The position numbers and the translations under genes were made by a program. Under the pieces are notes generated by a model. It made no database searches and had not been told where the DNA came from. It worked only from the letters and a program-made list of their open reading frames with translations. Shown one piece after another: positions 4,860 to 61,077 of a DNA stretch of 64,000 bases. The first letter of the stretch is position 1, and the number at the start of each line of letters is the position of its first letter. This DNA comes from a virus, in the IMG/VR virus record IMGVR_UViG_3300024999_000073, positions 18,287 to 82,286 of that record, one strand, 5' to 3'.

Positions 4860-5189
4860 ATGACGCCTACACAACCACCCTCAGATGGCAACGCCGTCGA
4901 CAATCCTGGTGATGGCAATGTAACCATTGCTGTGGTAAAGAATGATCTATCACATCTGATAAGGATAGTCGAAGGATTCATTGCTGAACAGAAGTCCATC
5001 AATAAGAACCTAAATGACTCCGCTCTAGATCATACAATAAAGATCGAAAGAATCAAGACCAGAGTTTCATTGGTGATCGGCGTAAGCGGATTCTTGTTTG
5101 CAGGCATCACCACGATTTTGTTAGGTTTCTTCTGGCAACTCCTCACAAATCAAATTGCAATAGGAGCATCTCCGTCTCTAATTCCGTGA
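4860..5189 (+). CDS. Membrane protein (coiled coil plus C-terminal TM; holin/XhlA-like)
   Basis: Single C-terminal TM; lysis-type context. Confidence 0.45.
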   Translation: MTPTQPPSDGNAVDNPGDGNVTIAVVKNDLSHLIRIVEGFIAEQKSINKNLNDSALDHTIKIERIKTRVSLVIGVSGFLFAGITTILLGFFWQLLTNQIAIGASPSLIP

Positions 5190-5222
5190 ACATTCGCAGC
5201 ATTCATACACTTCTCCTCGAAA

Positions 5223-5255
5223 AGAACCGCGGCCCCCACCCCTGGCCGCGGTTCT
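5223..5255. terminator. Hairpin between convergent genes
   Basis: AGAACCGCGGCC-N9-GGCCGCGGTTCT. Confidence 0.7.
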
Positions 5256-5276
5256 GATTCCTGCTGAAATATATCT

Positions 5277-5534
5277 TTATGGGGACGGGGCAGGGTAAGG
5301 AGTAGGATTGTGATTATATTCGGGCACGCTGATGAGCGGATCGCTTTCGGTTGGATACAAGAACGAGCATATAGCGGCGTTCTGTTCGGTCTTATGAGCG
5401 CAGAACAAAACGCCGAACTGATTCGCTCTTGAAGTTGTGGGGACTGTAGAGGCTGTATTCATAGCGTTGCTACAGGCAAGCCCAGCAATCAAGAGGATGA
5501 ACAAAGCGCGGACAAAGTAGTGATCGAATTTCAT
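5277..5534 (-). CDS. Small lipoprotein
   Basis: Signal peptide with lipobox IAGLA-C. Confidence 0.55.
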   Translation of the reverse strand: MKFDHYFVRALFILLIAGLACSNAMNTASTVPTTSRANQFGVLFCAHKTEQNAAICSFLYPTESDPLISVPEYNHNPTPYPAPSP

Positions 5535-5578
5535 TGTGTATATTCCTTTCTAAGGACAGATTATCTACTTCCTCTCGA

Positions 5579-6214: not shown

Positions 6215-6391
6215 TTATTCTCCTTTCGAGGGATCAATGAGGCGCTTTTCGAGCGACTCCATATAAGAATACAGAGCCAGGCGGATCATGGCAGAAACGT
6301 TTAGGTTCAATTTCTGTGAAAGTTCACGCAATTTTAACACCTGCTCTTTGGTGATCGTGATCGAGATACGTTCATATACATTTTTATCCAT
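6215..6391 (-). CDS. Ribbon-helix-helix (CopG/Arc-like) regulator, 58 aa, absent from ORF track
   Basis: Manual translation MDKNVYERISITITKEQVLKLRELSQKLNLNVSAMIRLALYSYMESLEKRLIDPSKGE; AGGAG RBS. Confidence 0.7.
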   Translation of the reverse strand: MDKNVYERISITITKEQVLKLRELSQKLNLNVSAMIRLALYSYMESLEKRLIDPSKGE

Positions 6392-6409: not shown

Positions 6410-6535
6410 ATTATATCATTTAGTATGAGTGGATAAGAAGCAATTTTAGGGGCTAGTTGTTATCTTGTGAACATTCGCATAATTGGAAACTGGCCCTTGC
6501 CCGGTTAAAAACTGCCCCTAAATCTGTGTTAGAAT
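6410..6535. promoter_or_regulatory. Symmetric divergent promoter pair centred on palindrome TGTGAACATTCGCA (6466-6479)
   Basis: TG-A-TATAAT on - (6415-6410) and TG-T-TAGAAT on + (6530-6535), each 64 nt from the palindrome start on its own strand. Confidence 0.75.
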
Positions 6536-6565: not shown

Positions 6566-7480
6566 ATGCTTCATAGTTATCCTTCAGTATATGCAATCGG
6601 CCATAAAGCAATCGAGGAAATATTTCTCGGTCCCGTATTAATCGAGGAGAAGATCGACGGGAGTCAATTTTCCTGGGGAATTATTGATGATGAATTGCAA
6701 TGCCGTAGTAAGGGCAAGCAGTTTATTCTTGACGCGCCAGAGAAGATGTTCCAGCGTGCGGTTGACTTTGTACAGGAAATCGCACCAATGTTAAAACCTG
6801 ATTGGGTTTACCGTGCCGAGTATCTACAGAAACCCCACCATAATACACTTGTCTATGATCGGGTCCCTGCACATAACCTGATTATCTATGACATCAACAC
6901 TGGCCTGGAAGATTACATGCCCTGGGAGAAGAAACGCGATGAAGCTGCGCGGCTGGGTCTAGAATGTGTGCCGTTTTTCTATCATGGCATAGTTCAGAAC
7001 TTCGATATGTTCAAAGATTTTCTTGACCATGTTTCTTGCTTGGGTGGTACAAAGGTGGAAGGCATTGTAGTAAAAAATTATGCGCTTTTCACCGCCGAGA
7101 AGAAAGTCGCGATGGGGAAATACGTCTCCGAGTCTTTCAAAGAAATCCATACCGGGGAATGGCGCAAGGCCAACCCAACAAGCGGCGACATTGTAGATAC
7201 GCTGATCGTAGCCTATCGGACGCCTGCTCGTTGGCAAAAGGCCGTTCAACACTTGCGCGACGCTGGAAATCTGGAATGGTCTACACGCGATATTGGCAAT
7301 CTTATCAAAGCCGTACCAGAGGATGTTCTCAAAGAATGTGAGGATGAAATCAAACAGAGACTTTTTTCTCATTTCTGGCCTAAAATTAGACGCGGCATCA
7401 CCGCAGGCCTGGCAAACTGGTATAAAGACGAATTGGCAAAATCTGCATTTGAATCTCACGATGAAAGTCCGAAACCGTGA
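6566..7480 (+). CDS. RNA ligase (Rnl2-like nucleotidyltransferase)
   Basis: Motif I EEKIDGSQF, motif IV EGIVVK, motif V KYVSESFKE. Confidence 0.75.
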   Translation: MLHSYPSVYAIGHKAIEEIFLGPVLIEEKIDGSQFSWGIIDDELQCRSKGKQFILDAPEKMFQRAVDFVQEIAPMLKPDWVYRAEYLQKPHHNTLVYDRVPAHNLIIYDINTGLEDYMPWEKKRDEAARLGLECVPFFYHGIVQNFDMFKDFLDHVSCLGGTKVEGIVVKNYALFTAEKKVAMGKYVSESFKEIHTGEWRKANPTSGDIVDTLIVAYRTPARWQKAVQHLRDAGNLEWSTRDIGNLIKAVPEDVLKECEDEIKQRLFSHFWPKIRRGITAGLANWYKDELAKSAFESHDESPKP

Positions 7481-7492
7481 TATACTACCTCT

Positions 7493-7603
7493 GGTTGCCG
7501 CCCACAAAGAAAACAATACCATTACTGTAGGAATCAGCCTCGTCGGATGGTGTTGTTTTTCCTGGGTGGCAATCTAGGAACATTAACTTCTACCGATGAG
7601 GCT
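7493..7603 (+). ncRNA. Structured leader (long hairpin plus potential pseudoknot) upstream of the replication initiator
   Basis: 7493-7504/7563-7574 (12 bp), 7510-7522/7547-7559 (13 bp), loop 7536-7546 pairs with 7593-7603 (11 bp); TGnTATACT at 7478-7486. Confidence 0.55.
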
Positions 7604-7633
7604 TTTCCATTTCTGGAAGAAAGGTATATCACC

Positions 7634-8767
7634 ATGAAAGGCTACCCTATGAATAGCAACGCGGTCGTAGAAGCGTTCGGAAGAAGGTCAATCACAGGCA
7701 ATGTGATTCCTATAGAGTGGTTCAAACATCTAAAGATGGATAGTGGTAAGCCGGATGTCAACGGCATGATGATCTTAGCGGACTTGGTTTACTGGTATAG
7801 ACCCATCGAAGTCAGGGATGAAATCACGGGGGAAATATCCTGGCGCAAGAAATTTGCAGGGAAGATTCTACAACGAAATTATCCACAACTTCAAAAGTTT
7901 TTCGGGTTTACTCGCGATCAAATTTACTTTGCCTTACAGCGCCTCAGTAAATTGGGAGTGATAATGGTTTCTCTTGAGAACATTAAAGTCGACGGAAGAT
8001 TTCTTGGAAACGTTATGTATATCGAATTGAACCCCGAAAAGTTTGATGAAATCACTTATCCCCCCCCCTCTTCTAATGCACTAGAAGAGGGGTATGCTAG
8101 TGCATTAGAAGACCCTCTTCTACTCCAGTCGCATACATATACAGAGACTACTGTACAGAGACTCCAGGATACAGAGAATTCTATTAAAGAGCGCCCGCTT
8201 TTTCCAGAAAAAACAGAACCAACAGCGGAAGAAATTCTAGGCGTAGAGGCTAAGCCGGTCCCGCCTCAACGACCTCCGCGTACAGCCGATGAAATCAAAG
8301 CTGAGGTTCGCGCATCCGTTGAGAAATTTCAAGAGCGCAGTAACGGCAAGAGCGCATTAGAATGCCAGGTTCACGATTACAGCCAAACAATACCTGAGAA
8401 CCTTCGCAACTTATTCACCGCCTTCTGCCTGAAATTTGGGCGCTTGCCTCTCAAGAACGAAAAGATTTATTGGATCAATGAGCTGGGAAAGCAGAAGGCA
8501 ATTGGGATCACACCACAGTTGATCGAGGCTGCTTTCGAGCATTGTGATAAAGAGGGCATTTGCATAAAATCGCCAGCCAGTATCACCGCATTTGCAGAGA
8601 ACATAAAACGTGTAAATGTTCACGCTGATACTCCTTACGCTGGTAAAACCGCCGATCAAGTCAAACGAGAGGCTATCATACATTATGGCGGGACATGGTC
8701 TGCGAGCCAACACAGGCTTATTCCTATTGCAGAATTAAAGGCCATGGGTAAGTGGAAAGATGACTGA
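7634..8767 (+). CDS. Phage replication initiator
   Basis: ITGNVIPIEWF...ILADLVYWYRP N-terminal wHTH-type domain; immediately upstream of DnaC-like ATPase; start 7634 or 7649. Confidence 0.7.
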   Translation: MKGYPMNSNAVVEAFGRRSITGNVIPIEWFKHLKMDSGKPDVNGMMILADLVYWYRPIEVRDEITGEISWRKKFAGKILQRNYPQLQKFFGFTRDQIYFALQRLSKLGVIMVSLENIKVDGRFLGNVMYIELNPEKFDEITYPPPSSNALEEGYASALEDPLLLQSHTYTETTVQRLQDTENSIKERPLFPEKTEPTAEEILGVEAKPVPPQRPPRTADEIKAEVRASVEKFQERSNGKSALECQVHDYSQTIPENLRNLFTAFCLKFGRLPLKNEKIYWINELGKQKAIGITPQLIEAAFEHCDKEGICIKSPASITAFAENIKRVNVHADTPYAGKTADQVKREAIIHYGGTWSASQHRLIPIAELKAMGKWKDD

Positions 8768-9590
8768 AGAATTTATCTCTGAATTCATAGATTTCGACGA
8801 GCATGGCAGAGTAAGGGAGAAACCTGCACTCCGTCATAAGTTAGAGGGATTGTTGCCCGAAGAACTAGATGCTATAAAACGGCGGCGCATGGAAGTGAAA
8901 TCGGGCCAATGCAAACCCGAATGTAGTATTTGTAACGGTAGCGGCTATTACAGGTGTGACGTGCCCATTGAACATCCCGATTTCGGTAAACTGTTTATTT
9001 GCCCAAACGTAGACAGGTGGAAACTACCGGGCGCGGTGCGTTATGGCATCACCGAAGAAGAAACCAGAAATCTAAGATGGGATGACCTGGATACATCTAT
9101 AGTCGGAGTCGAGCAGGCAATCCATGACATACGAGCGGTAATGGATCGAGGCTTTGGATGGGTAATGCTAAGCGGAAGCTATGGATTAGGCAAGACCATG
9201 ATGCTCAAGATAGCCATTGGTGCATCTATTAATGCTGGTAAAGACGCCGCTTACGTGCGCATGGCCGAAATCCTGGATAATTTGCGCGAAGGTTTTGATG
9301 AGCGCACGGGAGTATCGGAAACAGCCCGACTTGACTGGTGGACTGACCTCAAAATCCTGGCGATAGACGAAATAGATCGCATTCGGGAAACCGAATATGG
9401 AACAGAAAGGCGGTTTGTGTTATTGGATCGCAGATACGAGCAGGCGTGTAGACAACAAAGCATCACCCTACTTGCCAGCAATATCGAGCCGGAAAAACTA
9501 CCAGGATATTTATCGGATCGCATACTCGATGGTCGTTTTGCAGTTGTCAGATTTGCAGGAAAAAGCAAACGTTCGTCTATGGAGTGGTAG
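8760..9590 (+). CDS. DnaC/IstB-like helicase-loader ATPase
   Basis: Zn motif CSICNGSG...C, Walker A GSYGLGKT, Walker B LAIDE, LASN, SDRI. Confidence 0.85.
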   Translation: MTEEFISEFIDFDEHGRVREKPALRHKLEGLLPEELDAIKRRRMEVKSGQCKPECSICNGSGYYRCDVPIEHPDFGKLFICPNVDRWKLPGAVRYGITEEETRNLRWDDLDTSIVGVEQAIHDIRAVMDRGFGWVMLSGSYGLGKTMMLKIAIGASINAGKDAAYVRMAEILDNLREGFDERTGVSETARLDWWTDLKILAIDEIDRIRETEYGTERRFVLLDRRYEQACRQQSITLLASNIEPEKLPGYLSDRILDGRFAVVRFAGKSKRSSMEW

Positions 9591-9805
9591 GTGTGCATTG
9601 CAGAAAAGCGCGCCGCTTATTTTTGTTATGGCACCTTGATAAAGGCCATAGAGCAGGCTATCTGGCGCACGTCAAAGCCTGTCCAGATTGCCAGGCAGAA
9701 TTAAATCGCTTGATGGAACAGGAACGAGCAAGATTGCCGCTAAATCCATATACATTGGAGCAAGAAGCGACGCTAGACGAAGAATTGAAAGGAAATGAGG
9801 TATGA
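9584..9805 (+). CDS. Small zf-HC2 (anti-sigma-type) zinc-finger protein
   Basis: C...HVKACPDC (HxxxCxxC). Confidence 0.5.
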   Translation: MVGVHCRKARRLFLLWHLDKGHRAGYLAHVKACPDCQAELNRLMEQERARLPLNPYTLEQEATLDEELKGNEV

Positions 9806-10056
9806 GTCCAAGAAAAGAATATGAAACTGGTATTGAAGCACGCAAGAATATAGTTGCATACATTCGCAGATTTACAGCCGTAAATGGCTACTCTCCGAAT
9901 TTGCGTGAAATCATGGATGCATGTGATTTATGCAGCACATCTCTAGTCAGCCATCATCTTATAAGATTACGAGAAGCAGGCGTGATTTCGTATAAAGACA
10001 AATTAACAAGAACACTACGCGTAATCGAACGAGAGGCAGAAATTGGACAAACCTGA
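9802..10056 (+). CDS. LexA-type winged-helix DNA-binding protein (no peptidase domain)
   Basis: NGYSPNLREIMDACDLCSTSLVSHHLIRLREAGVI...RTLRV. Confidence 0.8.
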   Translation: MSPRKEYETGIEARKNIVAYIRRFTAVNGYSPNLREIMDACDLCSTSLVSHHLIRLREAGVISYKDKLTRTLRVIEREAEIGQT

Positions 10057-10270
10057 GACGAAAAACGTTGGTGCAGATGGTAGCATGAGAGGGCTATTGA
10101 TGTTCATGCTATCGAGCTATTTAGAGTGGGCAACCGTGCTTATGCTTGCGGGAATATTTAAGTGGATCCAGGCTGAACCGCTGGCGATATTGTGCATAAC
10201 CCTACTTGGTGGCACAGTTCAGGTGATCGTGACATTCTACGTGATGATGAAAATGTTCGAGGTGAAATAG
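10043..10270 (+). CDS. Small membrane protein
   Basis: Two hydrophobic helices. Confidence 0.5.
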   Translation: MDKPETKNVGADGSMRGLLMFMLSSYLEWATVLMLAGIFKWIQAEPLAILCITLLGGTVQVIVTFYVMMKMFEVK

Positions 10271-10271
10271 C

Positions 10272-10601
10272 ATGAAGGCTGCTGCAGAAGTTCGAGAGCA
10301 TATTTGGAATAAATCGAGAGCCATCGAAACCGGTGTCGTTGAGCGCAGAATAACCTCACGTGGAGAGAAAGGCGCGATCATAGGCTGGCTGAACAAGACC
10401 TGTGGCGGCAGCGATAACAGGCATTTGCTTCTAGGATTCCTGTTCTACGGTGACAACAACATGAGCACCTATGAGTTGACAGATGCGGAGTGGCAAGTCC
10501 TTTATGAGTGGTGTGGCTTCTTTGAAGAAGACAACACCTGGCATGTGGCGCAAACGTTTCTCGATAATGTCAAAACCGTGATGGAGGCTATGAGAACATA
10601 A
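10272..10601 (+). CDS. Hypothetical protein
   Basis: GAGGTG RBS, operon packing. Confidence 0.55.
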   Translation: MKAAAEVREHIWNKSRAIETGVVERRITSRGEKGAIIGWLNKTCGGSDNRHLLLGFLFYGDNNMSTYELTDAEWQVLYEWCGFFEEDNTWHVAQTFLDNVKTVMEAMRT

Positions 10602-10618
10602 GAGGCAAGTAGGATGTC

Positions 10619-10918
10619 TTGAATCGATATGCAGCTAAAGTTGACGCCAACCAGGCCGAGATCGTTGAAGCTGTCCGAAAGATTGGAGTCAGCGTTCTAC
10701 TCTTGCATACTGTTGGTAAAGGATGTCCCGATAATCTCTGGGGCATAGACATAGACAGTGAATTTAGTGTGAATATTCTGGTGGAAATCAAAACCGAGAA
10801 AGGCAAGTTGACTCCTGACGAGGAGATATTCTTTGATACCTGGCGTGGGCAGGTATGCATTATCAGGAGCGTAGAAGAGGCAGTAGAATTAGTCAATCAG
10901 ATCAGAAATAAGAGGTAA
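10619..10918 (+). CDS. VRR-NUC nuclease
   Basis: AAKVDANQAEIV...GCPD...VEIK...GKLT. Confidence 0.8.
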   Translation: MNRYAAKVDANQAEIVEAVRKIGVSVLLLHTVGKGCPDNLWGIDIDSEFSVNILVEIKTEKGKLTPDEEIFFDTWRGQVCIIRSVEEAVELVNQIRNKR

Positions 10919-10922
10919 AGAG

Positions 10923-11162
10923 ATGGACAACAATAGTGAAAATAAAGTGGAAGTGAAAAACGAAATGTCAATAATAGTATCCAGAGGTTCTCCTTGTATG
11001 GAGATTTCCCTATCAAACCAAGGTAGCATGAAAAGCATTTGGATGCTCACAATGCGGAAATCAAGCTCATGGATTGTGTTAAATTGGGATCATTGGCCTA
11101 TTCTAGTAGGTATGGTTGAGCAGGCCATTCAAGCACGTGACGATATATTAGCGGAAAAGTGA
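10923..11162 (+). CDS. Hypothetical protein
   Basis: GAGGT RBS, operon packing. Confidence 0.5.
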   Translation: MDNNSENKVEVKNEMSIIVSRGSPCMEISLSNQGSMKSIWMLTMRKSSSWIVLNWDHWPILVGMVEQAIQARDDILAEK

Positions 11163-11243
11163 TGAAGAAGTATATCGAGAAGGTCAATAAATATATAAAC
11201 GAGAACATCTATACGCTCTCATTTTATGCGTTGTTAGTCGTGA

Positions 11244-11597
11244 TTGTGCTATGTACCCCTACAGGAGTTCGTGGTGGCTAAGTTCAAAATCCTACGGATT
11301 GATGAGACTTTCGAGGTCCCATCAGAGGTGGCGAAGTGCCCGATATGCGGGTCTAAGTTATTCGCGTCCTTTGAGGAATGGAATCATGGCGGCGACGGAT
11401 TACTTATCGGAGTCGATGTCCATCTGGATTGCGAAGCCGAACCTGATGACATAAACTCACAAGAGTGGAAAAGCTGGTTTGCTGGTCACTATCAGACACC
11501 GTATGTATATTGGTTGCCAGTATGTATTGCAGTTGAAAAATGGACAACTGCAAACTTTCGTTTCTGCAACGAGAAAACAGATGCAGAAAACTGGTAG
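11244..11597 (+). CDS. Hypothetical Zn-ribbon protein
   Basis: CPICG motif; start probably a GTG near 11271. Confidence 0.5.
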   Translation: MCYVPLQEFVVAKFKILRIDETFEVPSEVAKCPICGSKLFASFEEWNHGGDGLLIGVDVHLDCEAEPDDINSQEWKSWFAGHYQTPYVYWLPVCIAVEKWTTANFRFCNEKTDAENW

Positions 11598-11664
11598 CCT
11601 GGAAAGCATCGGTAGCGATAATGGCAGATGAAATCTGCGAACATTCGCAGGAATAGAGGCTGAA

Positions 11665-11949
11665 ATGGCGGAGAAATATAAGTATCATTGTACTCCAGTA
11701 CCAGGAACGTTGTGCAAAGAAGAAGCACAATGGCTGGTTTGGTTCGAGAAATGTGGTAATTTATACACATACATGTGTACTCATCATGCAACGGAAGCGA
11801 TGAAAAACGGTGTGGATGGCTACGCTGTGATTTGTGTTCGCTCTTTTGAAGATGCTGTGTGCCTGTGTATGCCTGACATTGAGAAGGCCATAGAAATATT
11901 CCTGAATTCAGTTGAGAGCGCCGTAGGATTTCAAAAGCATGGACGATAA
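11665..11949 (+). CDS. Hypothetical Cys-rich protein
   Basis: GAGG RBS; overlaps the methyltransferase start. Confidence 0.45.
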   Translation: MAEKYKYHCTPVPGTLCKEEAQWLVWFEKCGNLYTYMCTHHATEAMKNGVDGYAVICVRSFEDAVCLCMPDIEKAIEIFLNSVESAVGFQKHGR

Positions 11950-14560: not shown

Positions 14561-14627
14561 GAGACAAAAATGGCGCATAAAATGAATATGCCTATTATCG
14601 AAATTGTATTAAGGGAGCGAAACCATA

Positions 14628-15390: not shown

Positions 15391-15401
15391 TATGGCAGGC
15401 A

Positions 15402-52671: not shown

Positions 52672-53223
52672 ATGTCACTAAAGGCATATCAGTTGGCCGG
52701 GCCGAATCCGTGCCCGATGACAATAGCAGAAGTTGATGCTCTGGCAGAGATCGCCAAGAAACTACCGCCATGGCCAGTCATCATAAATATTGGTGCAGAC
52801 GTAGGGTGCTCTACACTTACCCTGTTGGAAACCTGCCCGGACGCCACGATCTTCTCAATCGATGTGCGCCCATGCGAAGCCGAGAAAAGAAACATTTCTT
52901 TGGCAGGATTACCTGAAAGTCAAGTTATCCGAATTCTTGGTAAAAGCGAGTCCACTGGTTTCCTTTGGGAGAATGTCTGTAAAGTTAACCTTGTTTTTGT
53001 CGACGGCGATCACAGCAAGGAAGGTGTTCTCGCAGATATAAGAGCCTGGTGGGATCATATCAAAAAGGGTGGATACCTGGTATTCCATGACTACATTCCC
53101 GAACCTATTCCTCCTGAAATATTAGGACGTGTGGTCTATGCTGTCGACGATAATCCTATCTTGGAGCAGAACTTCAAAGAGGTATTATGGGTAGAAAGAC
53201 TCAAGGCGTTTCAAAAGAAATAG
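52672..53223 (+). CDS. Class I SAM methyltransferase (Methyltransf_24-like)
   Basis: NIGADVGCS, FVDGDHS, FHDY. Confidence 0.8.
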   Translation: MSLKAYQLAGPNPCPMTIAEVDALAEIAKKLPPWPVIINIGADVGCSTLTLLETCPDATIFSIDVRPCEAEKRNISLAGLPESQVIRILGKSESTGFLWENVCKVNLVFVDGDHSKEGVLADIRAWWDHIKKGGYLVFHDYIPEPIPPEILGRVVYAVDDNPILEQNFKEVLWVERLKAFQKK

Positions 53224-53822
53224 ACGCCATTATCCAGGCTGATAAGGGTTTCCAGAGAGTTCTAACGGCGCTCCGCCCATTCGATGAACTCCCGCTTCCG
53301 CGCGTACACAAGCTCTGGTCGTTCTATACTCTTGCTAAGATTGCATATCACAGAGGTGTTATCGTAGAGTTAGGCACATGGCGCGCCTTTGGTCTGGTTG
53401 CTTTATCCTACGGTAGCTTGGCTGGAAGTGAAGTCCAGGTCTTCTCTGTGGATAATTACAATATGAAAGATTGGGCAGGCGTTGAATATACCAATGCTGA
53501 CTATGAGATTGCACAAAAGGTTCTGCTGAGTGCAGGTATAGAAGATGATAGGATTTTCCGCGGAGATTTCATACAAATCGCTGAGAGATGGAAAGCGCCT
53601 GTGAGTTTACTTGTGTGGGACGGAGGTAATCACAATATTTTTGCAGAGATAATGGCCTGGGAACATTTTGTAATTCCTGGCGGTATCATAGCCTTGCACG
53701 ATACCTATGCTAATGATCTGGATAGCCGTTCGATTTCGCTCCACCTCGTAGACAAACATGGTTATATCTGTGATCCAGAACCAATGTCGGGCTGTGTGAT
53801 TATACTGGAAAAATGCCAATGA
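53187..53822 (+). CDS. Class I SAM methyltransferase (Methyltransf_24-like)
   Basis: VELGTW, LVWDG, PGGIIALHD. Confidence 0.75.
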   Translation: MGRKTQGVSKEIDAIIQADKGFQRVLTALRPFDELPLPRVHKLWSFYTLAKIAYHRGVIVELGTWRAFGLVALSYGSLAGSEVQVFSVDNYNMKDWAGVEYTNADYEIAQKVLLSAGIEDDRIFRGDFIQIAERWKAPVSLLVWDGGNHNIFAEIMAWEHFVIPGGIIALHDTYANDLDSRSISLHLVDKHGYICDPEPMSGCVIILEKCQ

Positions 53823-54565
53823 GAGCCATCATTTATATTGCAGACAAAGACCGTTATTATGCTCAGGCGGCGTGCTCCGCTGAAAGTGTGCGAAAGTTCA
53901 CGCCTAATGTGAAAATTTTCTTGTTCACGCCTAAAGCGCATATCGACTCGCCCCATTTCGGAAAGTTTGATAAGGTGATACCGGTTGCTTTTCAAGGCCA
54001 GGATCGCCATAATTGGTATTATAAACAGACCGTTTACACCATCATTGCCTGCCAGGATTTGATAGCAATGGGGATCGAGCGGGCATTGTATCTGGATTGT
54101 GATACTTATGCGTGTGCACCTATAGCCGATCTGTTCAACCTGACTACAATGTTCAACTTTGCAGGTGCGCAAGCCCCGCGCAGGTTCACAGCTAAGACCG
54201 CTGATGTGGTCCCGGACTGGTTTCCAGAGTTCAACATCGGTGTAAACCCCATGCGCATCGATGCGGCTATGGTGGACTTCTGGAGCGCAGTAGCAGAGGA
54301 GTATGATAAGAACGAAGAACGTTATGGCGCAGACGATCAACATGCTTTGCGGGTAACGCTCTGGAATTATGCCTGTAGTAAACCAGAATTCAGGGTTCAC
54401 ACCTTACCGGATGAATATAATTGCCGGTTCTGCTTCCCGGTCTCTGTTGGGAAAGAAGTGAAAATATTGCACGGCATACCCGCAGAAACTAATTACGAGA
54501 ACATTCGCAGCATTATCAACGAACATCCTGGAGCTATTCGTGGATGGGCGGAGGGATTAAAGTGA
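53813..54565 (+). CDS. GT8-like glycosyltransferase
   Basis: YLDCD (DxD), FNIGV, DQHALR, LPDEYN. Confidence 0.75.
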   Translation: MPMRAIIYIADKDRYYAQAACSAESVRKFTPNVKIFLFTPKAHIDSPHFGKFDKVIPVAFQGQDRHNWYYKQTVYTIIACQDLIAMGIERALYLDCDTYACAPIADLFNLTTMFNFAGAQAPRRFTAKTADVVPDWFPEFNIGVNPMRIDAAMVDFWSAVAEEYDKNEERYGADDQHALRVTLWNYACSKPEFRVHTLPDEYNCRFCFPVSVGKEVKILHGIPAETNYENIRSIINEHPGAIRGWAEGLK

Positions 54566-55032
54566 GCGAATACGAAACTGCGAGTGAGATCGAAATCGCA
54601 ATTGCACGTCATTTTGGCATTCCCTCACATCTGTCTATACCTAATGTGAGTTGGGGTTTCTTTATCCATGAATGTGACGTCGCTGTTGTGACTCCATCAC
54701 ACTATTTTTATGAAGTAGAAATTAAGATATCAAAACAAGACCTGATTAGGGATAAAGAGAAACATCATGGGCATGAAGATGAAAGGATAAAGCAACTTTG
54801 GTTTGCAATTCCAGAAAAGTTACTGCCTTATATCGAACACATCCCCGACCATGCAGGCATTCTTATGGTTTCAAAGAAAGGTTACATCAAACGCATTAAG
54901 CCTGCCAGAATCAATAAATATGTGCAACCTCTGACAGAGAAAGACTGCTATAGACTTGCAAGGCTTGGAGCTATGCGCATTTGGAGTTTGAAGGAACGTA
55001 TTAAGGAACTAGAAACGAGAGTGAACAAATGA
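54562..55032 (+). CDS. PD-(D/E)XK nuclease-like (MmcB-related) protein
   Basis: HECDV...YEVEIKISKQDL. Confidence 0.6.
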   Translation: MSEYETASEIEIAIARHFGIPSHLSIPNVSWGFFIHECDVAVVTPSHYFYEVEIKISKQDLIRDKEKHHGHEDERIKQLWFAIPEKLLPYIEHIPDHAGILMVSKKGYIKRIKPARINKYVQPLTEKDCYRLARLGAMRIWSLKERIKELETRVNK

Positions 55033-55313
55033 CCATCAAACCGCAGGGAAACATCGAAAGATATAACAAGCCTCGGCCAGGAACAATGTATGCAATTGAG
55101 CCAGTCATTGAGATTGCATCTTGGTGTCGTGATAAAGAGGCCAAATTACCGCCAGAACAACTGCACTTGATTATGCATGTTGATTTTCTTGAACATCCAA
55201 TCCTGGCTAGATTCAAGTCTCCCGACACCTTAGGTTTTATGATTGAAGAACTCACTCGATATCGCCGTGAAATATGGCCTGATTCAGACTTGATAACGGG
55301 AGAAAAGCCATGA
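55029..55313 (+). CDS. Hypothetical protein
   Basis: Coupled ORF. Confidence 0.5.
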   Translation: MTIKPQGNIERYNKPRPGTMYAIEPVIEIASWCRDKEAKLPPEQLHLIMHVDFLEHPILARFKSPDTLGFMIEELTRYRREIWPDSDLITGEKP

Positions 55314-55717
55314 GTCAAATATTGACAATCGAAACGCATGTTGATGAGCGCGGCAAGCTCGGCGTGGTTGAGGATTTCAATATCTTCCCGATCAAGCGCG
55401 TGTTCTGGGTGTATGGCATGAAAGGGACTCCGCAGCGTGGAAAGCATTTGCATAAATCTTGCAGTCAATTCTTGGTGTGTTTGCAGGGATGGGTGCGTGT
55501 GAACATCTCCATAGACCCACCCCTCACCCCCCATCTTTTTTCTACGCATCACGTTCTTGAAGCCGATAAGAACAAAGGTCTATTGCTAACGCCTGGGGAA
55601 TTCCTGGAATATACTCTAAGCGAAGACGGGATTTTGCTGGTGTTAGCATCCGAATATTATATGCCTGAAGAATGCGTTTCCTACGCCCAAGAAGATATTG
55701 TGTATTCCATTAATTGA
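55310..55717 (+). CDS. fdtA: dTDP-sugar 3,4-ketoisomerase (FdtA/QdtA cupin)
   Basis: DERGKL, IKRVFWVY, RGKHLHK, LLVLASEYY. Confidence 0.8.
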   Translation: MSQILTIETHVDERGKLGVVEDFNIFPIKRVFWVYGMKGTPQRGKHLHKSCSQFLVCLQGWVRVNISIDPPLTPHLFSTHHVLEADKNKGLLLTPGEFLEYTLSEDGILLVLASEYYMPEECVSYAQEDIVYSIN

Positions 55718-55726
55718 GAGGCTACT

Positions 55727-56842
55727 ATGAGAGTAAAAATGCACGATCTGACCTTGTTAGAGAAGGACATTAACGAGGAGTTTCTCTCCACGATTGCGGC
55801 TGAGAGGACTTGTAACGTCATCAAGAACGGCGTTTACTTGAAAGGCCCGCAGAACGCGGCTTTCGAGCAAGAGTTCCTACAAACCATCCTCGACTTCAAT
55901 GGGACCGGGATTTCTGCTATGGGCGTAGGCAATGGTTTCGATGGCCTGCAGATCGCCTTGCGTTCGCTTGGAATCGGGCGCGGCGACGACGTACTCGTGC
56001 CCTGGAATGCGCCGCTGCCTGTATGGATGGCGGTGACGATCACCGGCGCTCGTCTTATTCCATTGTACGCAAACGTTTGGGGCGTAATTGATGAAGATAG
56101 CATTCAGAAGATTACCCAACGTGTTCAAGCGATCATCGTTGTTCACATGTATGGTTATCCCGCGGATGTAGATACTATTCGATCTGTTTTACCAAAAGAG
56201 GTAACAATCATCGAAGATTGTAGCCATGCTCATGGGGCTGAGATCAACGGTAAAAAGGTGGGAACATTCGGAGATATTGCTGTGTTCTCATGCTATCCCA
56301 CAAAGCCATTAGGCGCGCTCGGAGACGCGGGAGTGATCGTTGCTCCCACCAAGCAGATTGAAACTATGCGAATGATCGCAGAATATGGTGGCGGCTATTT
56401 CAGGGGCATTAACTCACGCCTGGATGAACTACAGGCGGTCTATCTGCGCCTCAAGCTCCCCTATGTTGAGAAGTGGAATGCAATGCGCGCTCATAACGCC
56501 GAATTCTACTGGGGACGTCTGAAAGACCTTTACAATTCCATCAGCATGATTTTGCCAGCAAAACACCCCGGCCACGTATGGCACCAATTTGTGATACTTC
56601 ATGAGAAGCGTGATGAGTTGAGGCGGTTCCTGTCCGAGCGCGGTATTGAGACAGGAATCCATTACGATCCGTTCCCGCCTAACACGCCTGTTTACCGGCA
56701 TTCTGTATCAGCCAATGTAAAGAAAGATGCAGCATTCCTGTCATCTAAGGTACTCAGCCTTCCCGTAGGCCAGCATCTTGATGATGAGGATTTAGAATAC
56801 GTTTGCCAGGCGATTCTAGACTTCGAGGCGAAAGGCCACTAA
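55727..56842 (+). CDS. fdtB: DegT/DnrJ/EryC1/StrS aminotransferase (FdtB-like)
   Basis: GVGNG, EDCSHAHGA, SCYPTKPLGALGDAG, NSRLDELQA. Confidence 0.85.
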   Translation: MRVKMHDLTLLEKDINEEFLSTIAAERTCNVIKNGVYLKGPQNAAFEQEFLQTILDFNGTGISAMGVGNGFDGLQIALRSLGIGRGDDVLVPWNAPLPVWMAVTITGARLIPLYANVWGVIDEDSIQKITQRVQAIIVVHMYGYPADVDTIRSVLPKEVTIIEDCSHAHGAEINGKKVGTFGDIAVFSCYPTKPLGALGDAGVIVAPTKQIETMRMIAEYGGGYFRGINSRLDELQAVYLRLKLPYVEKWNAMRAHNAEFYWGRLKDLYNSISMILPAKHPGHVWHQFVILHEKRDELRRFLSERGIETGIHYDPFPPNTPVYRHSVSANVKKDAAFLSSKVLSLPVGQHLDDEDLEYVCQAILDFEAKGH

Positions 56843-57786
56843 TGGAAAATCTACGTGTACTCATGTTGCCACAGTTAGCCAGATTTGCGGGAGATGAATC
56901 TGGGATCAAAAGAGTTGTAGAGCATTACCACGCTCTTTCCCATGAGTTCTCTATCGAGTTCGTTGATATTCCTGTGGAAGAGGAAGAAAACTATGATGTG
57001 ATGGCTGTCCACGCCGGTTCTACGGACAGATGGCCCAAACACAAGCCTTTACTTTCGATCTGTCACGGCTTGTACTGGGATGCAGATTCTACAGCGGCGT
57101 GGCAATTCGACGCCAATGTGAATGTGATAGAATGTCTCCGCAGGGCTACGGTTATAACCGTGCCTAGCAATTGGGTTGCTGAAACGCTCAGGCGCGAACT
57201 GCGTGTGCAGCCTGTGATTCTTCCTCATGGCATAGACTGGGAGGCCTGGCAGCACTCAGAACCTAATGACGGCTACGTGCTCTGGAATAAAAACCGGCCT
57301 GGGGATGTGTGTGATCCAAAACCAGTGGCTGAATTGGCGGGAATGTTCACGGATTTACGCTTTATCACTACTTTTGCTCCAGAAGGAACTGAGTTGCCAA
57401 ACCTGGTAATCACGGGCGTGATCGGCCATGCGGTAATGAGAACGATGATACAACGCGCTGGAGTTTACCTGTCATCCACGAAAGAAACTTTTGGTATCGG
57501 TATCCTTGAAGCAATGGCCGCCGGAATTCCAGTATTAGGGTACGCATGGGGTGGTAATCTAGACCTGGTGAAACATGGGATCACGGGTTATCTGGCGGCT
57601 CCCAACAACCCGGATGATCTCGCTCAGGGGTTGCGGTTCTGCCTGAAACATCGGGGAATCTTGGGGCATAATGCCAGAATTGATGCCAAGAACTTCACCT
57701 GGCGCAACTCCATGACCATCTTGCGCTCAGCCCTCGATCAGTGTATGGCTATTTACCGAGACTATCAGCGCCCGATGTTCCTTTAG
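56842..57786 (+). CDS. GT4 glycosyltransferase
   Basis: ETFGIGILEAMAAGIPV. Confidence 0.85.
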   Translation: MENLRVLMLPQLARFAGDESGIKRVVEHYHALSHEFSIEFVDIPVEEEENYDVMAVHAGSTDRWPKHKPLLSICHGLYWDADSTAAWQFDANVNVIECLRRATVITVPSNWVAETLRRELRVQPVILPHGIDWEAWQHSEPNDGYVLWNKNRPGDVCDPKPVAELAGMFTDLRFITTFAPEGTELPNLVITGVIGHAVMRTMIQRAGVYLSSTKETFGIGILEAMAAGIPVLGYAWGGNLDLVKHGITGYLAAPNNPDDLAQGLRFCLKHRGILGHNARIDAKNFTWRNSMTILRSALDQCMAIYRDYQRPMFL

Positions 57787-58492
57787 AGCAAATATCAAAG
57801 AGGGGTTGTAGGTCGCTTTCGTCAAGCGAACGCCTGAACTCAATATCAAACTCGATCGCAGACGCTCTCGCAGACGCTCTACGAATGCTAAGCCACGCCT
57901 CGAACAACTGTCTGAGAAGTGCGCCGCCTATCCTTACGTTCGTGAATATGGTGTCGATGCCCATCATAGACATCTGATCCCCGAAGGTCTTGAGTTCCAT
58001 AATTTCTGTGTTCTCGATAAAGCTGCCAACGTCGAAGGCCACGCAGTCGATAAGTCCAGCCCTTATCAGAGTCCCGATCCTGGCGCTGATTGCCATCGTA
58101 ATATGGCTGGTAGAGTAGACAATCTTGATACAATCATTTGGGCAAAACCCGTTTGCAATATTACCTGCCGATGTGTAGGCATGGTCTAGGTAGCTATCTC
58201 CAATGGTGTAAGACCACAGGCACGGCACCAATAGGCCATCGCAGTCGTGGGCATCATGGGTAACGATCATGTATTGCGGCTGTTTTCGGACTTCTCTAAC
58301 AAGCATCTCAAGAGTCCAAGCAACATATTTGTTTACTACCTTATCGCCATCGGCCTTACGCTCCTTGCGCCATTCCCGGATTTTTGCCTGAGTTGGGTAA
58401 CGATCAAACTCAGATAGAGGCACACGCCCGATCCTGGGCTTGCAGGTGCGCCCGATCTCCTGTAGTTTTGTATCCAGATCATCAATATTCAT
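57749..58492 (-). CDS. Hypothetical protein inserted antisense in the glycosylation cluster
   Basis: 247 aa, GGAGG RBS, own promoter at 58516. Confidence 0.6.
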   Translation of the reverse strand: MNIDDLDTKLQEIGRTCKPRIGRVPLSEFDRYPTQAKIREWRKERKADGDKVVNKYVAWTLEMLVREVRKQPQYMIVTHDAHDCDGLLVPCLWSYTIGDSYLDHAYTSAGNIANGFCPNDCIKIVYSTSHITMAISARIGTLIRAGLIDCVAFDVGSFIENTEIMELKTFGDQMSMMGIDTIFTNVRIGGALLRQLFEAWLSIRRASARASAIEFDIEFRRSLDESDLQPLFDICSKGTSGADSLGK

Positions 58493-58510
58493 ACGAAGCC
58501 TCCGCCAGAG

Positions 58511-58636
58511 ATTATACAGGCAATCGGGAGATAAAAAGAGTGGGTTTTTGGGCTGTTTACTAATCCTGCGAATATTCCCACAATTAGAAGATTGCCTGTC
58601 TTAGCAGATAAAATTCATGCCTCAACCGAGTATAAT
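58511..58636. promoter_or_regulatory. Symmetric divergent promoter pair centred on TGCGAATATTCCCA (58567-58580)
   Basis: TATAAT on - at 58516-58511 and on + at 58631-58636, both offset 64; 21 nt identical to the 48020-48040 site. Confidence 0.75.
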
Positions 58637-58652
58637 GTGGGTGGAGGACATC

Positions 58653-60752
58653 ATGCCCGACGTCAAACCTATTGTAGCAGTTGTAGTGCCGTTATTCAAT
58701 TACAAGGATAAGATCGAAAGAGCGATCAATTCCGTAAAGGCTCAAACCCTGACTAACTTTTCTTGCATCATCGTAGATGATGGATCAACCGACGACCCCA
58801 AAGAAACCGTGGAGGCGCTCATAGCCGGTGATGACCGTTTTCGGTTCATCCAAAAGCCGAATGGGGGGGTAGCAACTGCTCGCAATCTCGGAGTATTCAC
58901 CAGCACAACGCCATACGTGTGTTGTCTGGATGCTGACGATGCCATTGCTCCTGAATTTTTAGAAGCCTGTGTGCGTGCTCTCGAAGAAGACCCAAGTCTC
59001 GCCATCGCCTATACCGGTCTATGGTATATCAGGAAAGATGGGCAAGAGGGGCTATCGGAATGGCCCGGTCAGTGGAATTTCGATGCGCAGTTGAGAGTCG
59101 AGAATCAAATCTCGACATGCAATGTTGCTCGGAGAGAAGCTTGGGAACGATTAGGCGGCCAGCGCCAGCGTTTTTGTCCCGAAGGCGCGGGGGAGGAAGA
59201 CGCTGAGTTATGGCTGAGAGCTGGAGCTTATGGTTTCAAAGCCAGGAAAGTAACCGACGCCGGTCTATTCTTGTATTCATTTCTCAGTGGACGCGTAAGC
59301 GGAGATCGAATGCACAGACCCACAGATTACATGGCCTGGCATCCGTGGGTAAAAGATGGGAAGCATCCGTTTGCATCCTACGCGACTCCCAAGCGCGCCT
59401 CTCATCCTGTCAGACAATATGACCGGCCCCTGATAAGCGTCATCATCCCTGTTTCTGATGCTCACGCTCGCAATCGTATGTACATCAATGCTCTGGATAG
59501 CCTGGACGCGCAAACGTTTCGCAATTGGGAAGCCATTGTAGTGTTTGACACCGATTACAAAGATGAACGCCTGATGATCGAATATTCTTACGCGCGCCTG
59601 TCAAAGATTGACAAGTCTCCAAAAGGAGCAGGCATGGCGCGTAATCAAGGCGCTGAACTTGCTCGCGGCAAATTCTTGATATTTCTAGATGCCGACGATT
59701 GGCTGATGCCACACGCGCTTGAAATGATGTTGAGGGGCTGGGCTAATGAGGAAGCGATTATCTACACAGATTACGTGAGCAAGTCTGTCATCGATGAGAA
59801 TATGGCAGATGAGCTGAAGCTTTCCAATAAGCTCCTGGATTACGACGAAAAGACTGGCATGGCGGCCATCGACAGCCACACATTGAACTATGAGTATGAG
59901 CGTGCGATCAAACAACCACATCCTGATCTTTATATTTGGAATCTGGTAACGTGTTTGGTGCCGAAAGCCTGGCACAATGCCATTGGAGGTTTTGACGAAA
60001 ACATGCCATCCTGGGAAGATTGGGATTACTACATACGCATGGCGCGTGCAGGTTATTGTTTCAGGCGCGTGCCTATGCGTTTAGTCATCTACCGGTTTTA
60101 TTCGGGCGAACGCAGGGAGAAAGGCATACAGGAGCATAAGTCCCTGATAGAATATATGCTAAACAAGTACGCGAAAGAAGGTGTCAAGATGTGTGAATGT
60201 TCACAAAGTTCGCCCACAATAAACATTCCGCAGAATGTAGAGCGATCTGAGCAAATGAAAGGAGCGCAAGTACAGGCTATGAGCGATGACAATTTTGTAA
60301 TGATCGTGTACCAGCCCATGAACACTGGTATGCACAGAGTAGTCGGCCAGGCTTCGGGCTACGATTATGGCTATCGAGGCAGTGGAGAACCATTCTTGGT
60401 GGACGCTCGTGACGCCGCTTTATATCCAGAAGTGTTTATAATCATGGAAGCGCCGAAGACAGAAACGCCTCCAGAGAACAGCGTTCCACAGGCTGTTCAG
60501 CCAGAGCCGCCAACGCCGGTGAAGATTGACGAAGAACTTAAAGAACTCAAGGAGATTATTCCAGAACCAGAGAACTTCCTGGATAGCGTTTCTGGACTTA
60601 CCCCGGCATCGAAGTCGGCGCTGATCGAACATGGCGTGACCACAGCATCCAAAGTGCGCGCAGTTGGAGTCGCGGGTTTACGTCAGATTAAAGGCATCGG
60701 TCCCAAACGGGCGCTTGAAATCTACGGTAGGGCAGTTTCTTATGTGGGATGA
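58653..60752 (+). CDS. Tandem GT2-GT2 glycosyltransferase with C-terminal unknown domain and HhH motif
   Basis: IVDDGSTD/LDADD; second VIIP...FLDADD...WEDWD; C-terminal LRQIKGIGPKRA. Confidence 0.85.
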   Translation: MPDVKPIVAVVVPLFNYKDKIERAINSVKAQTLTNFSCIIVDDGSTDDPKETVEALIAGDDRFRFIQKPNGGVATARNLGVFTSTTPYVCCLDADDAIAPEFLEACVRALEEDPSLAIAYTGLWYIRKDGQEGLSEWPGQWNFDAQLRVENQISTCNVARREAWERLGGQRQRFCPEGAGEEDAELWLRAGAYGFKARKVTDAGLFLYSFLSGRVSGDRMHRPTDYMAWHPWVKDGKHPFASYATPKRASHPVRQYDRPLISVIIPVSDAHARNRMYINALDSLDAQTFRNWEAIVVFDTDYKDERLMIEYSYARLSKIDKSPKGAGMARNQGAELARGKFLIFLDADDWLMPHALEMMLRGWANEEAIIYTDYVSKSVIDENMADELKLSNKLLDYDEKTGMAAIDSHTLNYEYERAIKQPHPDLYIWNLVTCLVPKAWHNAIGGFDENMPSWEDWDYYIRMARAGYCFRRVPMRLVIYRFYSGERREKGIQEHKSLIEYMLNKYAKEGVKMCECSQSSPTINIPQNVERSEQMKGAQVQAMSDDNFVMIVYQPMNTGMHRVVGQASGYDYGYRGSGEPFLVDARDAALYPEVFIIMEAPKTETPPENSVPQAVQPEPPTPVKIDEELKELKEIIPEPENFLDSVSGLTPASKSALIEHGVTTASKVRAVGVAGLRQIKGIGPKRALEIYGRAVSYVG

Positions 60753-61077
60753 AATTAGAGAAACGATCACGCTCACTCTGGTGGTGTGGCGGTTGACCTC
60801 ACTTTTGGTGAGGGAGGATGGGCCATTCGACGTATTTGCCAAACTCAGAATGTTCCTGGGAGTGCGGTTCAACCAGGCATCGCAAATGTATGGCGTCAAC
60901 GTACTTTCGCGGGGCATAATTTGTTTCTGGTGTTGCTCGATGTGGGTGAGCCTGGCAGTAGCTCTATTCGCCAGTTATTCTGTGAACATTCACACATTTA
61001 TAGCTGCTGTCCTGGTTCTTAGCAGCCTTGCAATCTTGTTAGATAATCTGATTGCTTTTCTTGGGAGAGCGAAATGA
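60742..61077 (+). CDS. DUF1360-like membrane protein
   Basis: WRLT.L...DGPF, CFWCCSMW. Confidence 0.7.
   Translation: MWDEIRETITLTLVVWRLTSLLVREDGPFDVFAKLRMFLGVRFNQASQMYGVNVLSRGIICFWCCSMWVSLAVALFASYSVNIHTFIAAVLVLSSLAILLDNLIAFLGRAK

Follow-up and report, generated by a model that had tools for sequence, protein, structure and literature searches.

A short palindrome that recurs both between and within the genes of a phage raises the question of what reads it and to what effect. We addressed this question for a 64,000-nucleotide stretch of DNA (hereafter the window), which corresponds to bases 18287-82286 of one 82,286-bp virus record (IMG/VR IMGVR_UViG_3300024999_000073) with a G+C content of 48%. 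The palindrome, whose strict consensus is YGYGAAYRTTCRCR, has 14 matches in the window as compared to 0.01 expected from dinucleotide shuffles. These matches start at 5185, 6466, 11636, 13469, 16646, 16712, 18638, 29207, 35540, 43353, 44923, 45701, 60192 and 60981, and all 14 are found where a first-pass annotation of this DNA had placed copies of a repeated palindrome. Ten further, looser copies from the same annotation (6315, 13790, 38954, 40035, 44769, 48021, 53889, 54496, 57338 and 58567) are also real members of the family, but they miss the consensus that it gave at one or two positions. Judging from the form and placement of the copies, the palindrome may well be the operator of one twofold-symmetric regulator (a dimer or a dimer of dimers), most likely phage-encoded, that organises transcription of the non-structural two-thirds of the genome.

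A symmetric 24-bp search matrix was built from the 14 strict sites and run over the 82,286-bp genome, with the means of 200 first-order Markov simulations as the null. The genome contains 19 sites at or above 22 bits (the strong sites), 27 at or above 17 bits and 33 at or above 15 bits, for which the simulated means are 0.0, 0.04 and 0.1, respectively. Four near-matches had also been proposed; those at 4460 (20.9 bits) and 56259 (17.0 bits) stand, the one at 8611 is marginal (14.0 bits) and the one at 10768 falls below 10 bits and does not. The sites absent from the earlier list are one at 56367 in the window and four degenerate ones in the 18 kb upstream of it. Genes were called from codon usage and ribosome-binding sites, giving 124 genes that cover 92% of the genome, and 10 of the 19 strong sites fall within the 8% that is non-coding. 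The gene blocks, in window coordinates, are the following:

58653 to the genome end and on from the genome start to 5189: plus-strand block with genes for a glycosyltransferase, an M23 peptidase, a tape-measure-size protein and a tail spike.
6391-5579: short minus-strand operon, the ribbon-helix-helix (RHH) gene and the gene of a 210-residue protein.
6566-16933: plus-strand replication block.
28588-17202: minus-strand block.
29564-38805: plus-strand packaging and head block.
47809-38948: minus-strand block of small genes.
48110-57786: plus-strand glycan block.
58492-57749: single minus-strand gene.

The palindrome had been called genome-wide, which is only partly right: no strong site is found in the 26.5 kb of tail and structural genes that run from 60981, via the genome start, to 5185, nor in the 10.6 kb that follow 18638. 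The sites are instead found mainly within 56 kb that hold regulatory, replication and accessory genes.

Alignment of the strict sites shows that the flanks of the palindrome are A/T-rich and symmetric, so the unit is a 24-bp dyad, AAWYY-YGYGAAY followed directly by RTTCRCR-RRWTT; no conservation between copies was found beyond these 24 bp. Such a dyad might be read as nucleic acid structure or as a protein site. Over the outer ten potential pairs of 24 sites there are 105 Watson-Crick pairs, 15-16 G-U pairs and ~60 mismatches (60 of 180 stem pairs) on either strand, the hairpins predicted at the sites mostly reach only -1 to -5 kcal/mol, and there is no G-U bias on the transcribed strand. Moreover, each arm fits the half-site consensus independently and compensatory changes are absent. 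Independent variation of the arms together with poor folding points to a protein site, and we rejected the hairpin reading on the grounds of weak folds, free arm mismatches and the lack of strand bias. Deamination of CpG as the origin of the Y/R positions was also dropped, given that the transversion variants TTCCCA and GGGGAA occur as well. Judged by the pattern of its bases, the element most likely serves as the target of a single symmetric DNA-binding protein, dimeric or tetrameric, and the earlier proposal of sites for one dimeric protein is supported by the dyad symmetry and by arms that match the half-site consensus separately. A literature search with the core sequence returned only papers on CpG oligonucleotides.

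We then asked where the strong sites lie relative to promoters, counting -10 boxes (TAnnnT, at least 5/6 matches) at offsets of 20-119 nt on both sides of the 19 sites, that is, in 38 site-directions. At an offset of 64 nt from the palindrome start a -10 box is present in 7 of the 38 site-directions, as compared to 0.15 expected, and every other offset is used at most twice. The seven boxes, those of the class A promoters, belong to sites 6466, 48021 and 58567, each in both directions, and to site 44769 in the leftward direction. Five of them are TATAAT, and six have a ribosome-binding site and the ATG of a called gene within 16-30 nt downstream, which validates the boxes as promoters with very short leaders. 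An eighth promoter, at site 35540, has its box at an offset of 54 nt, one helical turn closer. If the -10 box is taken to span -12 to -7, the dyad centre is at about -69.5 in seven of these promoters and at -59.5 at 35540. The best match to a -35 box (TTGACA) averages 3.0/6 at these promoters and 2.46/6 at random positions; by sequence, then, these promoters have a near-consensus -10 box and no -35 box. Canonical promoters with two hexamers show no enrichment in the genome, and four of the five well-placed promoters with a TGn-extended -10 box have a palindrome 54 or 64 nt upstream. The sites and boxes concerned, together with the remaining site in a divergent region, are:

6466-6479: class A site, 28.3 bits, midway between the divergent promoters of the RHH operon and the replication operon, with a -10 box at 64 nt on both sides.
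6530-6535, plus strand: TGn-extended -10 box TAGAAT of the replication operon promoter, with the ATG at 6566.
6410-6415, minus strand: TGn-extended -10 box TATAAT of the RHH gene promoter, with the ATG 18 nt downstream.
48021-48034: class A site TGCGAATATTCCCA, 27.3 bits, between divergent promoters, both -10 boxes at 64 nt.
48085-48090 (plus strand) and 47965-47970 (minus strand): -10 boxes TATAAT of site 48021.
58567-58580: class A site, 26.6 bits, whose 24-nt core is almost the same as at 48021.
58631-58636 (plus strand) and 58511-58516 (minus strand): -10 boxes TATAAT of site 58567, each 16-18 nt before an ATG.
44769-44782: class A site, 24.9 bits, at the leftward promoter of the GerE/LuxR-solo operon, in frame 0 of a 65-residue open reading frame (ORF).
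44713-44718, minus strand: -10 box TATGAT, with TGn, of site 44769.
35540-35553: site before the gene of a 560-residue structural protein, 32.3 bits, with the TGn-extended -10 box TACAAT at 35594-35599, 54 nt away.
29207-29220: site in a 1-kb non-coding divergent region upstream of the terminase operon, 28.6 bits, with no -10 box at 54 or 64 nt.

Leaders of the class A promoters are 10-20 nt long except at the leftward promoter of 48021, where ~150 nt (47810-47964) precede gene 47546-47809; this leader may hold an attenuator or a small RNA. Three direct repeats of ~45 nt, 62 bp apart, lie at 29306-29474 between site 29207 and the terminase operon and have an iteron- or pac-like look.

Exact two-sided, helical-phase-consistent spacing at promoters that lack a -35 box argues for an upstream activator that touches RNA polymerase. 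At class I CRP promoters a symmetric dimer site near -61.5 or -71.5, one or two helical turns upstream of the -35 region, serves a promoter with a weak -35 box in a helical-phase-dependent manner, and it can serve divergent promoters. The phage promoters resemble these in having centres at -69.5 (seven) and -59.5 (one), with starts assumed from the -10 box, and -35 matches at random level. The site itself is unlike those of CRP and FNR (TGTGA-N6-TCACA or TTGAT-N4-ATCAA), since it reads TGYGA-N4-TCRCA and is thus 2 bp shorter, and no protein of the CRP/FNR family was found in the phage. A phage-encoded precedent is p4 of phi29, which is needed at the late A3 promoter with its poor -35 box, where it acts via the alpha subunit of RNA polymerase, and which also represses other promoters from nearby sites (PMC3100819). 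At A2c/A2b/A3 p4, a small dimer made by the phage, occupies an inverted repeat that lies upstream of a promoter with a poor -35 box and between divergent promoters (PMC3100819), and the palindrome studied here has a like position. The two systems differ in that phi29 has four p4 sites in one region, none of them intragenic, as opposed to the ~30 sites dispersed over the genome here, and in that the p4 site is an A-tract inverted repeat with arms ~15 bp apart that is bound together with p6; a p4-like protein was not recognised in this phage.

Sites are also clustered at the boundaries of transcription units. There is a site at each of the four divergent junctions, and at each of the four convergent ones a site (5185, 16646/16712, 38954 and the weaker 57338) is found within ~450 bp of the unit end. 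Start codons follow four of the sites at a distance of 15-19 nt, which is exactly 19 nt in three cases. The sites in and around promoters, intercistronic gaps and unit ends are:

11636-11649: class B site, 30.8 bits, 15 nt before the ATG at 11665 and 13 nt after a GATAAT -10-like box.
18638-18651: class B intercistronic site of a minus-strand operon, 28.4 bits, in the order stop codon, 3 nt, site, 19 nt that include a ribosome-binding site, ATG.
40035-40048: class B intercistronic site, 22.7 bits, with the layout and flanks of 18638 (CACTAAATS-site-AGATAA).
43353-43366: class B site, a perfect dyad, 29.0 bits, 19 nt upstream of the minus-strand ATG at 43333, at the head of the operon with the XRE gene.
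4460-4473: degenerate site, 20.9 bits, covering the -35/spacer region of the promoter (TATAAT) of gene 4517-4831 and overlapping the tail-spike stop codon.
5185-5198: site at the end of the long plus-strand operon, on the stop codon of its last gene, at a convergent junction, 29.9 bits.
38954-38967: weaker site, 19.5 bits, directly past tandem terminators (terminator at 38855-38884) at a convergent junction.
57338-57351: degenerate site in the last gene before a convergent junction, 19.6 bits.
60981-60994: perfect TGTGAACATTCACA, 31.0 bits, near the end of a 111-residue ORF, with a GATAAT box 61 nt downstream, before gene 61074.

At 43353 a GATAAT box precedes the site by 1 nt, so that the transcription start would fall within the site. 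The stretches 18619-18654 and 40016-40051 share a common 39-nt layout of TAA, 3 nt, palindrome, AGATAA, ribosome-binding site and ATG. Strong intrinsic terminators, with 12-13-bp G+C-rich stems and T runs, are found at two convergent junctions (17156-17184 and 38855-38884); at the end of the operon that stops at 5189 the palindrome lies on the stop codon, and the hairpin just downstream has a T run on the minus strand only.

Fixed upstream spacing at one set of sites, combined with sites that lie on promoters, downstream of them, between cistrons, at unit ends and within genes, favours a single dual-function regulator, which would be activator-like upstream of promoters and a repressor or roadblock elsewhere. 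At the eight promoters with a good -10 box and no -35 box the bound protein would recruit RNA polymerase from about -69.5 or -59.5, and one site would serve both promoters of a divergent pair. The copies that overlap promoters (4460 and 43353), those that precede a ribosome-binding site and follow either a -10-like box or a cistron (11636, 18638 and 40035), those at operon ends (5185, 16646/16712 and 38954) and those within genes would act as repressor or roadblock sites. The promoters may also fall into a sequence in time. Sites 48021 and 58567, the "late" sites, share a nearly identical variant (TGCGAATATTCCCA) with the same flanks, and self-sufficient extended -10 promoters together with this shared variant at non-extended pairs suggest a cascade. 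The TGn-extended promoters (of the RHH, replication and GerE-solo operons and at 35540) would fire unaided and so make the regulator, and the non-extended pairs at 48021 and 58567, which drive the glycan and the virion/tail operons, would depend on it.

A stronger version of this scheme, which we regard as rather doubtful, has one small phage protein operating a combined promoter-and-boundary code, such that occupancy of a single dyad would set the whole early-to-late programme. The equidistant site between paired divergent promoters that lack -35 boxes would then be a bidirectional activator hub, and the same protein on codon-embedded and intercistronic copies would insulate or terminate every transcription unit.

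The same distribution can be read without activation. A pure global repressor, such as an immunity repressor or an early shut-off factor, could silence all units through its presence on promoter regions, gaps between cistrons and gene bodies, possibly by looping or spreading, in the manner of L5 stoperators, SPBRE-MrpR of SPbeta or the C1 operators of P1, and would account for many dispersed copies, including those between cistrons, within genes and at operon ends, for the promoter overlaps at 4460 and 43353 and for an RHH gene that lies between two sites 151 bp apart, a geometry like that of the gal operon loop; the known precedents are, moreover, all repressors (PMC6550527, PMC10516654). We nevertheless consider a pure repressor unlikely. 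RNA polymerase cannot be occluded from -69.5, only one of seven class A promoters has a second site close enough for looping, and exact 64-nt spacing with a missing -35 box fits activation better. Furthermore, Pfam and PHROGs scans of ~80 proteins, with ~40 small ORFs outside the scan, gave no integrase, partition protein or other lysogeny gene.

This last result also bears on the stoperators of Cluster A phages (L5 gp71, Bxb1), which occur in tens of copies, are read by one regulator and in many cases sit in operon gaps where they block transcription (PMC6550527). The palindrome is like them in number (19-33 sites) and in the intercistronic position of 11636, 18638, 40035, 43353 and 35540. 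Stoperators, however, are asymmetric, oriented with transcription and part of temperate immunity (PMC6550527), whereas here we find a dyad at a fixed upstream position and no lysogeny gene among the ~80 scanned proteins. The stoperator comparison, as first proposed, is thus not borne out in the defining features, the dyad having no orientation and its most regular use being ~70 bp upstream of promoters that lack a -35 box. A second comparison is the SPBRE element of SPbeta, which was predicted in silico in intergenic promoter regions and later found to be the site of MrpR by chromatin affinity precipitation sequencing and electrophoretic mobility shift assay (PMC10516654). SPBRE differs in having ~10 copies, all at promoters, and a binder with a recombinase fold, as compared to a third of sites being intragenic and a fixed -10 spacing here. 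Dispersed operator networks are also represented by the conserved inverted repeats of phiC31, the C1 operators of P1 and the KorB sites of RK2. On the sequence evidence the element is best filed as a phage-wide operator of one regulator, a kind that is already established.

The copies inside genes show that the DNA itself is under selection. Coding sequence contains seven strict sites, as compared to 0.69 in synonymous-codon shuffles and 0.007 in codon-order shuffles, and the earlier claim to this effect is upheld by these codon-shuffled controls. The intragenic sites are:

6315-6328: near-consensus site inside the RHH gene, frame 0 (R-E-L-S-Q), 23.6 bits, 151 bp from 6466.
13469-13482: frame 0 (C-E-H-S-Q) of the gene of an 873-residue SPP[YF]-repeat protein, 29.4 bits.
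13790-13803: weaker site in the same 873-residue SPP[YF]-repeat protein, frame 0 (G-E-R-S-Q), 16.2 bits.
16646-16725: two sites 66 bp apart (16646 and 16712), frame 0 (RERSQ and CERSQ), 32.1 and 32.6 bits.
44923-44936: weaker site, frame 0 of a 99-residue ORF, 17.3 bits, 154 bp from 44769.
45701-45714: frame 0 (R-E-C-S-Q) of the DUF5131/gp37 gene, 26.8 bits.
54496-54509: frame 2, 56 nt before the gene end, 23.3 bits.
56367-56380: degenerate intragenic site, 21.8 bits.
60192-60205: frame 0 (C-E-C-S-Q) of the gene of a 699-residue glycosyltransferase, 24.3 bits.

The imprint of one peptide on unrelated proteins, which the first-pass annotation had pointed out, is real for the best intragenic copies, with an x-E-x-S-Q reading in seven of the nine strong ones. 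When weaker sites are included the three frames hold 9, 5 and 8 sites, so that the preference for frame 0 is limited to the strongest sites. One reading frame is partly closed, as YGA becomes TGA, and the shared peptide thus arises incidentally when a good site is accommodated in codons. Alignment of the DUF5131/gp37 protein with 19 homologs pairs IRECSQH with IIR-x-T-P-x-H without gaps, the site taking the place of the conserved T-P. This gap-free alignment indicates that site 45701 arose by substitution rather than insertion, against the residues usual for the family.

These observations bear on a composite alternative, namely that the palindrome is an RNA or DNA hairpin (a processing site, translational operator or cruciform), a mobile palindromic element or the target of a methylase or nuclease. 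In favour of this alternative, four copies stand just upstream of start codons. Site 13469 lies in a loop segment of ~17 residues that is missing from the sister modules of the 873-residue protein, sites 16646 and 16712 lie within a 22-residue tandem duplication near the end of a plus-strand operon, and the phage encodes an unusual multi-module methylase-like protein. The folding data described above weigh against a hairpin, with no compensation and no strand asymmetry in the arms. Nothing is conserved beyond 24 bp, which argues against a mobile element, as do the substitution origin of the DUF5131 site and the lack of target-site duplications or a longer conserved body; a small mobile palindromic element, like the Rickettsia palindromic element (RPE) or a miniature inverted-repeat transposable element (MITE), was rejected since the DUF5131 copy is not an insertion and there is no element body. 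We give this alternative as a whole only a very slight chance. The 873-residue protein (11939-14560) has eight SPP[YF] motifs 51-76 residues apart and a weak N-terminal match to N6_N4_Mtase (E=3e-4), and two palindrome copies fall in its inter-module loops.

Tolerance of intragenic positions is also seen in genome-organisation systems, some of which use 13-16-bp palindromes. The palindromes could accordingly be marks of the ParB-parS, Noc, SlmA, MatP or KorB-like kind, or landmarks for packaging or replication; MatP is an RHH protein, and the dispersed KorB sites of RK2 also regulate transcription. We regard this possibility, which had been raised as nucleoid or segregation marks, as very improbable. 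No ParB, ParA, SMC-like, TetR-type or MatP-type cognate was found among the ~80 scanned proteins, the strong sites avoid the 26-kb structural block (an estimated chance of ~0.02 for 19 random sites), and the sites track promoters to the base pair and cluster at the boundaries of transcription units.

What protein, then, would read the operator? Pfam recognises four small stand-alone DNA-binding proteins in the phage, all of fewer than 90 residues, and confirms the two domain calls made earlier (RHH and LexA_DNA_bind):

44115-44357, minus strand: GerE/LuxR-type helix-turn-helix (HTH) solo, 80 residues, Pfam GerE E=1.4e-15, candidate binder.
6215-6391, minus strand: ribbon-helix-helix protein, 58 residues, Pfam RHH_1 E=2e-5, candidate binder.
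42318-42572, minus strand: XRE-type HTH protein, 84 residues, Pfam HTH_3 E=2e-5, candidate binder.
9802-10056, plus strand: LexA-type winged-helix protein without a peptidase domain, 84 residues, Pfam LexA_DNA_bind E=8.8e-12, candidate binder.

Each of the candidate genes is near sites, which is unavoidable at such a site density. The GerE solo is our tentative first choice. Its gene is downstream of a class A promoter, its closest solved structures are the DNA-binding domains of LiaR, VraR and NarL, and proteins of the GerE/LuxR family are frequent activators. B. subtilis GerE, which is in the same size class, both activates and represses. The box of the GerE/LuxR-type protein RcsB, the RcsAB box, is TaAGaatatTCcta (PMC4325325). 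TaAGaatatTCcta matches the late sites 48021 and 58567 at 11 of 14 positions, both being 14-bp dyads with GAAT and ATTC meeting at the centre, but it lacks the invariant G of motif positions 2 and 4 and the likeness, made by eye, is not specific. The RHH protein, already proposed as reader, remains a good candidate, with the GerE/LuxR solo and the XRE protein at least as good, and we consider it a possible if unlikely binder. Its gene is bracketed by site 6466, at -69.5 from its promoter, and by site 6315 inside its coding sequence. Operators of the Arc/Mnt/CopG type have two sub-sites roughly one helical turn apart for a dimer of dimers, and the 24-mer can be read as two 11-bp pseudo-dyads (ATTC-N3-GAAT) with centres 11 bp apart, but its outer arms are only ~50% conserved. 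The XRE protein, whose operon begins downstream of the perfect site 43353, is an improbable reader.

The LexA-type protein is equally improbable. The phage protein has LexA_DNA_bind only, unlike a LexA reader with its winged HTH and S24 peptidase/dimerisation domain, and its best match among solved LexA proteins, that of Thermotoga maritima, is weak (E=0.0017), with a different recognition helix. In the LexA/SOS (Cheo) box CGAAC and GTTCG are separated by a 4-bp gap, whereas in the palindrome GAAY and RTTC abut. The resemblance to a LexA box that had been suggested is thus not supported, on account of the spacing (N0 vs N4), the weak likeness and the recognition helix. Finally, there is a small probability that the binder is another phage protein or a host protein; the SPBRE-MrpR case shows that a true binder may lack an obvious HTH (PMC10516654).

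If the reader were a global regulator of the host, such as a dimer of the LacI/CcpA, Rex or CRP kind, phage transcription would be tied to host physiology and the firing of the first promoters would be explained; CRP-like host activators typically have placement of the class I type. The core of the palindrome also has likenesses among cellular operators, namely to the symmetric lac operator core, TGTGAGCGCTCACA (2 of 14 positions different), to TGTGAA of the Rex half-site and to AACGTT at the centre of the PurR site. The spacing is nonetheless off in each case (N4 vs N6 for CRP, N2 vs N4 for Rex and a shifted AA with respect to LacI/cre), and the phage has its own four small DNA-binding proteins adjoining sites. 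Phages do carry sites for host factors, such as the Spo0A boxes of phi29 and Nf (PMC2731898), which counts in favour of a host reader, but 33 sites in 82 kb are far denser than known host-factor usage. On balance we find a host regulator quite unlikely.

Comparison with other genomes bears on both the motif and its reader. The phage is, by sequence, a distant lineage with most genes without a family. The best tblastn matches of its terminase are Salinibacter phages at 40% identity, with many metagenomic proteins at 50-57%; megablast of the terminase region against phage records gave no match, single-protein scans of IMG/VR with the terminase, the LexA-type protein and the RHH protein gave no relatives, and neither did a metagenome scan with the 873-residue protein. 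The GerE solo and RHH proteins have no detectable homologs besides themselves, and with the motif found in no relative the binder is not assignable by comparison. The records of five larger relatives were searched for the motif with one mismatch allowed: none was found in G001 (83.5 kb), and the single match in G003 (62.6 kb) is probably due to chance. An equivalent iterated palindrome was not found in the whole of G001 or G003. In G001, with 48% terminase identity, the palindrome CCCCATGGGG (up to TCCCCATGGGGA) occurs about eight times, in most cases with flanks that are not conserved. In IMG/VR the motif with its flank gives 75 single matches, roughly the chance number, and no locus has a second copy. 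A 20-mer of the late-site variant is absent from 596 Gb of genomes; the 19-mer has nine metagenome matches, which are probably due to chance because they have no protein or DNA similarity to the phage. Sequencing runs with phage sequence are groundwater and soil metagenomes only, with no RNA run among those listed. Where contigs from four runs overlap the window they are essentially identical to it, so that population variation is uninformative on site conservation. No tRNA genes or Rfam families were detected in the phage.

Several observations weigh against a dual-function operator read by a phage protein. An activator model alone leaves the intragenic copies unexplained, a phased promoter is missing at site 29207 and at several intragenic sites, and the 61-nt spacing at 60981 is out of helical phase. 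The promoter model assumes a sigma-70-type -10 box with a start ~7 nt downstream. The motif is in none of 80 IMG/VR terminase loci (~50% identity, 760 kb). RHH proteins are usually repressors. The likenesses to the RcsAB, lac/PurR, Rex and LexA boxes are in each case incomplete and do not agree with one another, so that none of them identifies a protein family.

Two other repeats were seen in the same DNA. A second iterated palindrome, GTCAA-WWW-TTGAC, is present in eight exact copies, each equivalent to two back-to-back TTGAC (-35-like) boxes, at 12847, 25292, 34415, 41129, 46984, 55314 and 59600 and at one position 6.5 kb upstream of the window; the copies at 25292 and 46984 are intergenic and the remainder intragenic. 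It may be the site of another phage regulator. At 41496-42100, ~40 copies of a 12-bp GGMTAACCTGNGGG-like unit correspond to a tetrapeptide repeat in a 495-residue DUF6745 protein (minus-strand gene 40829-42316).

Phage-wide operator networks are known from few cultured models, and the palindrome provides a clean example in an uncultured groundwater lineage with almost no annotated genes. What is notable here is a dyad equidistant between paired promoters that lack -35 boxes, the occupation of every strand-switch junction and the overwriting of protein sequence. Base-pair-exact, two-sided spacing defines a set of phage promoters without expression data and predicts a bifunctional regulator. The change of T-P to C-S in the DUF5131 enzyme indicates that protein sequence can give way to a regulatory DNA site. 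Should the activator reading hold, a 24-bp site and a bare -10 box would constitute a compact bidirectional switch.

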